Below are positions 13,866-15,159 of a stretch of 64,000 nucleotides of DNA, piece after piece. The notes below the pieces were generated by a model. That model worked only from the letters and a program-made list of their open reading frames with translations. It ran no database searches and was not told the DNA's origin. Source of the DNA: Escherichia coli (lineage in GTDB: Bacteria; Pseudomonadota; Gammaproteobacteria; Enterobacterales; Enterobacteriaceae). Position numbers and translations under genes: made by a program. The stretch lies in NCBI RefSeq assembly GCF_016026235.1, contig NZ_CP065613.1; one strand, given 5' to 3'. Each line of letters begins with the position of its first letter. Position 1 is the first letter of the stretch.

Positions 13866-13888
13866 CTGAGGGATCCCCAGAAAATTTA
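13866..13888. repeat. IS terminal inverted repeat (inside-end equivalent; contains GATC)
   Basis: CTGAGGGATCCCCAGAAAATTTA read directly; pairs with right end. Confidence 0.8.
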
Positions 13889-15076
13889 GTAAACCATTAT
13901 CATATTGGTATACCGTTGCTGTAGAACTTTCAGCCCTGCGTCAAGTGACAGTGTGTTTAGTATGAGTGGAGAATGTCGAATCACATTCTCCGCCAGTTTT
14001 AATAACGAGATGACTCGCCTGTGCTTCACTGTATTTGCCTGATATTTATGATGTATCCCTTTGTTTTCCAGGCTGAAACCGCTTAACCACATAATGATAC
14101 TGGCTAATGTTGCGATCAGACTCAATACCGTGACCCGCCCAGATGAATGACTGGCACCAAACCGTAGTCCAAATCCCCAGCGAGGATTTTTTTCATCCCT
14201 GAAATTTTGCTCAATTTGCATTCTACGGCTGTATAATTTCATTACCTGTTTTGGCGAGAACTCAGTACTGTTTGTGAAAATAAACCATGGTGATTTCCCG
14301 GCAGTACGAGCTTTAGCCGTCACCGATGGTCTGGTTGCTCTTTCCTTCGAGCGTTTAAATCTACGACCTTTAGGCTTACTTTTATAAAGATAAAAATGCC
14401 CTTCATGTTGTGCATTTTTATCTCGACCCAGCAGGCCTTCACCTAAATAAATTGCTGTCGTTGATGCTTTTGTGCCTGAGTCCGACACCTTTTCCCAGCC
14501 ATTACCAACATTGTAATAATGATTGCCCAGTACCCGGCAAATATAGGTCCAGCCACGGGAGCGGAGCTGTTGGAACCATCGCCCCTGAAAACCGGCATCT
14601 GTAATAACAATGACATCAGTCCCGGGGGAAAAGCACTCAGCAAGCGATTCCAGAAAACGCTCATGTACATCTGCATTCGCTGTCTGTGATGATGGAACGA
14701 CACAACTCATCAACGGTAAAGAACGCCCGTCACATGCCAGGCTTGCCCGCAAAAGCTGAAAACGAGAGGCATGATAAGCACTCCAGTCAATGAGTATCAC
14801 AACACGAGACATTCCCCGCGTAATCTTTTGGGTAATTCGCTGAAAAATGGTGGAAACCTCATTTTGCAAATGTCGATTCCCCAACAGTCGATCCACCCGC
14901 TTTATTTTGTTTTTAACTGATGCCGTACCGGTTAAATGACGCCCGATACTGGTAAGTGTGAGGGAAGCGCCATTTATTACAGCATTAGTTGCGTCAATCA
15001 GTGATTTTTGACGGTAAAGATGCAAAGGGGCCAGTATGTTGTTAAGGAAATTTTGGCATAATGAACGTGCAGGCAT
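13886..15076 (-). CDS. IS10-family DDE transposase, ~396 aa
   Basis: Aligns along its length with recalled IS10 transposase ([13 protein letters not shown]; ILIDWS; ITDAGF; [15 protein letters not shown] carrying the Y-x2-R-x3-E-x6-K signature); ATG at 15076 preceded by AAGGAG; track ORF extends 17 codons further to a GTG at 15127. Confidence 0.88.
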
Positions 15077-15136
15077 AGTGGTGATCTCCTTGAAATTGTT
15101 AGCACAATCAATTAGATCACATCTCACTATGCCTGT

Positions 15137-15159
15137 CTTGTTTTCTGGGGATTCCTCAG
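15137..15159. repeat. IS terminal inverted repeat (outside-end equivalent, next to transposase start)
   Basis: Reverse complement CTGAGGAATCCCCAGAAAACAAG; one mismatch versus left end removes the GATC. Confidence 0.8.

Follow-up and report, generated by a model that had tools for sequence, protein, structure and literature searches.

Positions 13866-15159 of the stretch analysed here (the window, 64,000 nucleotides of Escherichia coli contig NZ_CP065613.1) hold an insertion sequence that was originally predicted, from its letters alone, to be a divergent and possibly uncatalogued member of the IS10 group, with transposition coupled to Dam methylation as in IS10. Two questions follow: which element is this, and how much of the IS10 control apparatus does it carry? 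The explanation that we propose, with good confidence, is that mscL has been interrupted, with a 10-bp duplication, by the catalogued element ISEc60, which belongs to the IS10 subgroup and has an IS10-like control layout; the copy is intact and probably active.

The element, an intact IS4-family insertion of 1294 bp, lies inside mscL, with trkA (12154-13530) on one side and arfA/zntR on the other. Its left end (13866-13878) reads CTGAGGGATCCCC and its right end (15147-15159), taken as the reverse complement, reads CTGAGGAATCCCC; this end motif has only two matches in the 64-kb window, where 0.05 are expected by chance, and the copy is the only one that the window contains. The terminal inverted repeats extend for about 20 bp, with 19 of the first 20 bases agreeing between the two ends. 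The original prediction had listed the end sequences, a 396-aa open reading frame and the GATC coordinates, and all of its statements about the sequence check out. The features of the locus, whose identity and anatomy are direct observations, are as follows.

13856-13865, no strand: left copy of the target-site duplication, GGGATATCCC, in mscL; the identical 10-mer stands at 15160-15169
13866-15159, minus strand: complete copy of ISEc60 (IS4 family, IS10 subgroup), 99.9% identical over its full length to ISEc60-annotated copies
13866-13885, plus strand: terminal inverted repeat of the inside end, CTGAGGGATCCCCAGAAAAT; bases 7-10, counted from the tip, are a Dam site (13872-13875), as they are in IS10
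13886-15076, minus strand: transposase gene, 396 aa plus stop (NF033591, WP_001111632.1, DDE and YREK motifs)
15054-15062, plus strand: predicted pOUT-like promoter with extended -10 TGgCATAAT, within transposase codons 5-8
15069-15150, plus strand: predicted RNA-OUT-like antisense RNA, a hairpin and then a U-rich tract, UCUUGUUUUCU (sub-threshold RF00240 match, model R1, fold)
15070-15135, no strand: conserved inverted repeat (hairpin), from fold and covariation
15111-15139, minus strand: predicted pIN-like transposase promoter, from conservation in 37 relatives and a register as in IS10
15140-15159, minus strand: outside-end terminal inverted repeat, CTGAGGAATCCCCAGAAAAC, with AATC in place of the inside-end GATC
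15160-15169, no strand: right copy of the target-site duplication, GGGATATCCC

The suggestion that the element might be uncatalogued did not survive comparison with other genomes. Full-length megablast matches at 99.9% identity were found in E. coli, both on chromosomes and on plasmids, and in plasmid sequences from Shigella dysenteriae and E. albertii, and all of these copies, dozens in number, are annotated as 'IS4-like element ISEc60 family transposase'. The transposase is 100% identical to WP_001111632.1, to which RefSeq gives the same name, and strain FDAARGOS_943, a multi-copy host, has at its gat locus a copy that differs from the one in the window by one base. A near-full-length copy is present in 14 of 5426 complete E. 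coli genomes, in up to 39 places in one genome. Strains of the enteroinvasive type are among the E. coli in which ISEc60 occurs. ISfinder treats two elements as isoforms at 95% or more nucleotide identity over the full length, or 98% or more amino acid identity, to the reference; measured on RefSeq-annotated copies, and resting on RefSeq's use of the ISfinder name, the values here are 99.9% for the DNA and 100% for the protein. What could still speak for a new, uncatalogued IS10-group insertion sequence is a transposase only 36% identical to that of IS10, together with the fact that the general label 'IS4 family transposase' is all that most relatives under about 98% identity carry. We find this scarcely credible, because near-identical copies already carry the name ISEc60, far above the 95% identity that the original prediction had itself taken as the sign of a known element, and because the name is used in published mobile-element screens. 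The element is the already known ISEc60, and the locus an ordinary IS insertion. A literature search on ISEc60 and IS1330 returned table entries or passing mentions only and no functional data, and dam+/dam- data on ISEc60 were likewise not found in the literature searched; a text match in PMC10654070 proved to be to 'ISEc603'/'ISEc63'.

In its protein ISEc60 is a divergent member of the IS10 group, as had been proposed. The 396-aa open reading frame runs from 15076 to 13886 on the minus strand and is preceded by AGGAG; the 413-aa reading frame of a mechanical list is a mere upstream extension to a GTG. The protein scores 360 bits against NCBIfam model NF033591 (cutoff 152), in which the IS10 transposase also lies well above the cutoff, and the two transposases are 36% identical over 375 aa, which bears out the earlier estimate of well under half identity. 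D97, D160 and E289 (the DDE residues) and Y282-R285-E289-K296 (YREK) are invariant in a 15-member alignment that includes IS10, as is the motif IKRxDRLLGN; the 13-residue motif, the DDE residues and the YREK signature said to be shared with IS10 are thus all found in the ISEc60 transposase. The IS10 subgroup has been defined by features that include the signature Y-(2)-R-(3)-E-(6)-K, a length of 1200-1350 bp, 5'-CT termini and 9-bp repeats (De Palmenaer et al. 2008, PMC2266710). ISEc60 has the complete signature together with the DDE residues, its 1294 bp fall within this range, and both of its ends start with CTGAGG, so that protein model, motifs and type of ends all agree with the proposed assignment.

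The reference for the ends was the IS10 of Tn10 in plasmid R27 (L003:1601-2929), whose outside end reads CTGATGAATCCCC and whose inside end reads CTGAGAGATCCCC, matching the sequences given in the original prediction. ISEc60 has the IS10-type arrangement, with GATC at positions 7-10 of the inside end and AATC at the outside end. It has GATC sites at 13872-13875, 15083-15086 and 15115-15118, and the element as a whole has five against a compositional expectation of 4.9; because the count equals the expectation, any Dam signal lies in placement and conservation, not in number. We surveyed 80 related loci from reference genomes (34-86% amino acid identity), with the ends located by a motif-anchored search, and counted end layouts in 54 distinct complete elements (34-100% amino acid identity). 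GATC is present at the inside end only in 42 of the 54, at both ends in four, at neither end in five and at the outside end only, a reversed layout, in three. The original claim of an IS10-like Dam-site asymmetry is therefore correct, and the asymmetry is conserved across the group. One of the elements with a reversed Dam layout comes from Oceanimonas.

In a rival reading the GATC features are inherited and serve no Dam-dependent function, position 7 merely telling the two ends apart. The inside-end GATC is kept in 46 of the 54 elements, even beside changed bases (for example CTGAAGGATCCTC, CTGGCGGATCCCC and CTAAGTGATCCCC), and the outside end is without GATC in 47, where AATC stands in 40, GTTC in four, GCTC in two and ACTC in one. 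Because several different substitutions, at least four, remove it, GATC appears to be avoided at the outside end; both patterns argue against sites that are simply inherited. It is nevertheless true that the asymmetry comes down to one base, G versus A at position 7, and that end discrimination could be unrelated to Dam; the unremarkable GATC total and the evident persistence of relatives with both-end, neither-end and reversed layouts also fit that reading. The rival reading further holds that the two GATCs in the 5' region exist as part of a -10 hexamer and as its hairpin partner.

Upstream of the transposase gene, AAGACA at 15139-15134, a 17-bp spacer and TCTAAT at 15116-15111 form the -35 and -10 of a candidate pIN, and the Dam site at 15118-15115 overlaps this -10; GATCTAAT spans positions 15118-15111. 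In the predicted promoter, GATC thus overlaps the -10 hexamer as it does in IS10, where a Dam site overlaps the -10 region of pIN (PMC5006887). In a 37-sequence alignment of ISEc60 and IS1330-like elements, G-A-T-C-T, together with the T that closes the hexamer, constitutes the sole invariant block of the 5' arm region, and the GACA located 17 bp upstream varies little or not at all. The motif GATC[ATC][ATC][AC]T, searched for at least 16 nt inward from the outside end, occurs in 73 of 77 elements, including IS10, where it reads GATCAAAT and where our placement of the hexamer follows the IS10 literature. Of the two 5' GATCs of ISEc60, only 15115-15118 matches the IS10 promoter Dam site. A simple sigma-70/terminator scan listed neither pIN, pOUT nor the hairpin, and the pIN and pOUT candidates both have weak or atypical hexamers; we infer all three from their conservation, not from a promoter scan. 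The conserved 5' block fits a weak promoter (xxGACA, 17 bp, TCTAAT) that would have a Dam site over its -10 and the register of IS10 pIN.

The same block takes part in an inverted repeat. The 5' arm of this hairpin is situated upstream of the predicted pIN start. Its 3' arm comprises AGGAG (15090-15086) as the Shine-Dalgarno sequence, the second GATC at 15086-15083 and the ATG at 15076-15074; the GATCs at 15083-15086 and 15115-15118 are paired partners. Folded as the antisense strand, the repeat has a free energy of -31.6 kcal/mol (z = -7.2). Conservation and covariation of the pairing were observed directly in the 37 sequences: the 11-bp main helix, in which the start codon lies, shows 95% pairing, and at 7 of the 11 pairs both bases have changed. 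One pair is AU in 16 sequences, CG in 12, UA in seven and GC in one. Paired cells amount to 82%, compared to 36-42% in slid controls, and the covariation score was reached by none of 500 shuffles. The upper, loop-proximal helices (32-51, 33-50 and 38-43) are mostly unpaired and not conserved in register, and were dropped from the model.

This pairing bears on how the 5' GATCs should be read. Because GATC is palindromic and the pairing is perfect, the second 5' GATC follows automatically from the first, and a sizeable minority of relatives have GGTC, AATC or a similar sequence in its place, as would be expected if the second site had no Dam-dependent role of its own. The promoter GATC, in contrast, is invariant in 37 relatives whose leaders have otherwise diverged, and IS10 has sites at these positions that Dam is known to regulate (PMC5006887, citing Roberts et al. 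1985). Together with the behaviour of the ends, these observations make it distinctly unlikely that the GATC features of ISEc60 are inherited without Dam-dependent function. The comparative data strengthen the case that methylation-coupled control is conserved in ISEc60, a control that we infer from the placement and retention of the sites.

The hairpin has two faces. On the sense strand, an RNA reading through from outside would fold with -37.9 kcal/mol and hold the Shine-Dalgarno sequence and the AUG within the stem, whereas the predicted pIN transcript (start at about 15104) has a fold of only -0.5 kcal/mol and is less folded than 200 of 200 shuffles. In IS10, a fold-back mechanism protects against transcription from outside promoters, a logic that the predicted folds of ISEc60 reproduce. 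On the opposite strand, Rfam model RF00240 gives 16.8 bits (E = 8.2) at 15069-15139 (+), a score below the gathering score of 41 that leaves the match outside the family as Rfam defines it, at the same position and in the same orientation as the IS10 antisense RNA. With this model IS10 scores 99 bits and elements of Shewanella, Paraglaciecola and Vibrio score 31-45 bits, and RF00240 found no matches in nine relatives of the ISEc60 clade. A covariance model built solely from the ISEc60 clade (model R1) found one site in the window, at 15061-15140, gave 30-52 bits in several intermediate elements, and in genuine IS10 found the Rfam RNA-OUT site itself (L003:1645-1723, E~0.005). Because the reciprocal model searches and the covariation agree, we conclude that, as judged by sequence and pairing, the regulatory module is homologous to the RNA-OUT region of IS10 and has diverged past the reach of Rfam.

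A candidate promoter for such an RNA, TGgCATAAT at 15054-15062 (+), lies in codons 5-8 of the transposase gene, with a predicted start at about 15069. The motif TGnCAnAnT is found in 34 relatives at an unchanged distance from the ATG and is positionally equivalent to IS10 pOUT, whose -10 we take to lie within codons 6-7; its conservation may also reflect protein constraint, the motif being in coding sequence. The predicted sense and antisense RNAs would overlap by about 36 nt, and the 69-nt RNA-OUT of IS10 has 35 nt of complementarity (PMC5006887).

It is conceivable that the hairpin works on the sense strand or in the DNA only, as a fold-back structure or a terminator, and that no functional antisense RNA is made. 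The sense fold that buries the Shine-Dalgarno sequence and AUG would fit such a role, the RF00240 score is below threshold, and the candidate pOUT is without a good -35 and lies in coding sequence. Nor does the antisense strand gain support from the pairing statistics: counts of G-U against A-C pairs (38 G-U and 54 mismatches for sense, 29 and 63 for antisense) do not indicate which strand's fold is under selection. A hairpin used on the sense strand alone does not, however, sit well with an outward promoter motif that keeps its distance to the ATG in 34 relatives and has the position of IS10 pOUT, nor with an antisense fold of the same stability that has a U-rich tract behind it, nor with the homology of the module to the IS10 RNA-OUT region by reciprocal model searches. 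Moreover, both roles coexist in IS10 and are not mutually exclusive. We therefore regard a sense-only hairpin as unlikely, and favour a module that would serve both as a source of antisense RNA and as a fold-back structure.

By homology with IS10, the regulation of ISEc60 would work as follows. Transposase would be made from a weak promoter whose -10, TCTAAT, is overlapped by a Dam site, and a second Dam site would act at positions 7-10 of the inside end only. With Dam sites at both the promoter and the inside end, full methylation would hold down both steps, restraining transposase synthesis and inside-end use until passage of the replication fork gives hemimethylated DNA. An outward promoter in the first codons would produce an antisense hairpin RNA of about 80 nt, and since this RNA would pair with the transposase mRNA in its ribosome-binding region, inhibition would scale with copy number. 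Transcripts reading through from outside would be folded by the same inverted repeat, burying the Shine-Dalgarno sequence and the AUG.

The target duplication sets ISEc60 apart from IS10. Flanking repeats are 10 bp long in 8 of 8 ISEc60 copies at different sites (G-N8-C/A/T) and in the IS1330-like relatives, whereas IS10-proper elements in the same survey have repeats of 9 bp. A review of the IS4 family gives 9-bp direct repeats for the IS10 subgroup (PMC2266710), from which ISEc60 departs; because the review gives this length as a typical value, we treat the 10-bp repeat as a variant and not as grounds for exclusion. For ISEc60 alone, a 9-bp repeat with an extra terminal G is conceivable because every ISEc60 repeat begins with G, but this alternative is disfavoured, and 10 bp favoured, because the adjacent base varies among the IS1330-like elements. 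The ISEc60 insertion sites are GC-rich palindromes. The predicted target would be 10 bp long, palindromic and of the form G-N8-C, and recurrent insertions in mscL would fall at GGGGGATATCCC. A search for the IHF consensus, allowing up to one mismatch, found no site inside the element, and matches across the window were at chance level.

For annotation, these results mean that ISEc60 inactivates mscL in an Escherichia/Shigella-type chromosome. Some genomes of enteroinvasive E. coli and of the Shigella type have accumulated dozens of copies of the element, and the devices of IS10 (Dam sites, antisense hairpin and fold-back) are conserved, with covariation, down to about 35% protein identity; this conservation supports applying the IS10 model to ISEc60. 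What the analysis contributes is small, namely a conservation analysis across the family, a 10-bp duplication and an RNA-OUT homologue missed by Rfam, whose RNA-OUT family misses a large enterobacterial clade that makes 10-bp duplications in palindromic targets. A broader interpretation, for which we see about as much to be said as against, is that the ISEc60/IS1330-like elements form a distinct and undescribed lineage of the IS10 subgroup (with 10-bp GC-rich palindromic targets, no IHF site and an RNA-OUT homologue missed by Rfam), and that purifying selection acts across the whole group on the Dam asymmetry and the promoter GATC. If so, replication-coupled control would extend from one model element to a rule for the family, and exceptions such as the reversed layout of the Oceanimonas element would become informative.

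Compared with IS10 itself, ISEc60 has the same 5'-CTGA...ATCCCC ends, with GATC at positions 7-10 of the inside end and AATC at the outside end, and a Dam site over the -10 of the putative transposase promoter (GATCTAAT in ISEc60, GATCAAAT in IS10). In both elements the start-codon region forms a hairpin with a segment that lies upstream of the promoter -10, and ISEc60 shares with IS10 a candidate outward promoter, here in codons 5-8, as well as NF033591, the DDE/YREK residues and the 13-residue motif. The two differ in length (1294 bp in ISEc60, 1329 bp in IS10) and in the leader (83 nt versus 107 nt). In contrast to IS10, ISEc60 is without an IHF-consensus site near the outside end, makes 10-bp instead of 9-bp duplications, in G-N8-C GC-rich palindromes, and carries one more GATC, located between its Shine-Dalgarno sequence and start codon. 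The nearest large clade is that of the IS1330-like elements of Yersinia, Photorhabdus, Xenorhabdus, Serratia, Pectobacterium and Salmonella, at about 53% amino acid identity (range about 50-55%). These share with ISEc60 identical terminal 13-mers (CTGAGGAATCCCC and CTGAGGGATCCCC), the promoter motif GATCTACT, the 10-bp duplications and the hairpin, which in them shows compensatory changes; some of them, however, have a leader insertion of about 12 nt, which places the ATG at position 94-95 instead of 84, and a substantial minority are without the second GATC. The RNA-OUT family RF00240, finally, resembles the ISEc60 module in position, strand and hairpin architecture, whereas ISEc60 scores below its gathering threshold, and the probable homology of the two is seen through the clade model and covariation.

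The insertion of ISEc60 into mscL recurs, at the identical site and in the identical orientation, in two complete E. coli genomes, 2023CK-01509 (locus L090) and FDAARGOS_943. Between the mscL copy of 2023CK-01509 and the window copy there are 14 differences, but the former is identical to the other copy in that strain (L087); together, these two observations suggest either that a hot-spot target was struck independently or that IS copies have converted one another.

ISEc60 carries GATC, a Dam site, at its inside end and AATC at its outside end. We found this layout reversed in the Oceanimonas relatives L051, L053 and L056 (about 620-1930 in each locus), where the outside end has GATC and the inside end GCTC. 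The promoter -10 position of these elements is without GATC, and the predicted 5′ hairpin over the transposase start region is still present, being detected at about 28 bits by R1, a covariance model built only from ISEc60 and its nearest large clade, the IS1330-like elements. Symmetrical ends were found in a minority of relatives, with GATC at both ends in L025, L068, L080 and L066 and AATC at both in L034 and L064; such elements could provide naturally occurring controls when asking what the end asymmetry does. In L080, from Dryocola, AAATTCAAC is triplicated in tandem within the hairpin loop (621-716), which extends the leader to 111 nt; both hairpin arms are kept.

The transposase frame is open through the outside end, and in the window it forms part of a 413-aa ORF beginning at an upstream GTG (13886-15127, minus strand). 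Public databases hold "proteins" of 557-680 aa (P0001-P0008) that join this transposase to adjacent genes, with aldehyde dehydrogenase A and YdbC among the fusion partners. These are probably gene-calling artefacts; they illustrate a possible route to read-through translation of the transposase, and the fold-back hairpin would oppose such translation.

A separate observation concerns the 73%-identical relative from Buttiauxella gaviniae (L005): just upstream of it, the Rfam model for the sok antitoxin RNA gives a strong hit (269-439, 105 bits), and this copy therefore adjoins a hok/sok module.

Direct repeats of 10 bp flank ISEc60 (window 13856-13865 and 15160-15169; L004, L085-L090) and also its IS1330-like relatives (survey loci L005-L056), and the target sites of both are GC-rich palindromes, such as GGGGGATATCCC and GCCCCTGACGGGGC. 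In contrast, the repeats around the IS10-proper elements of this survey are 9 bp long, the length given for the IS10 subgroup in a review of the IS4 family (PMC2266710).
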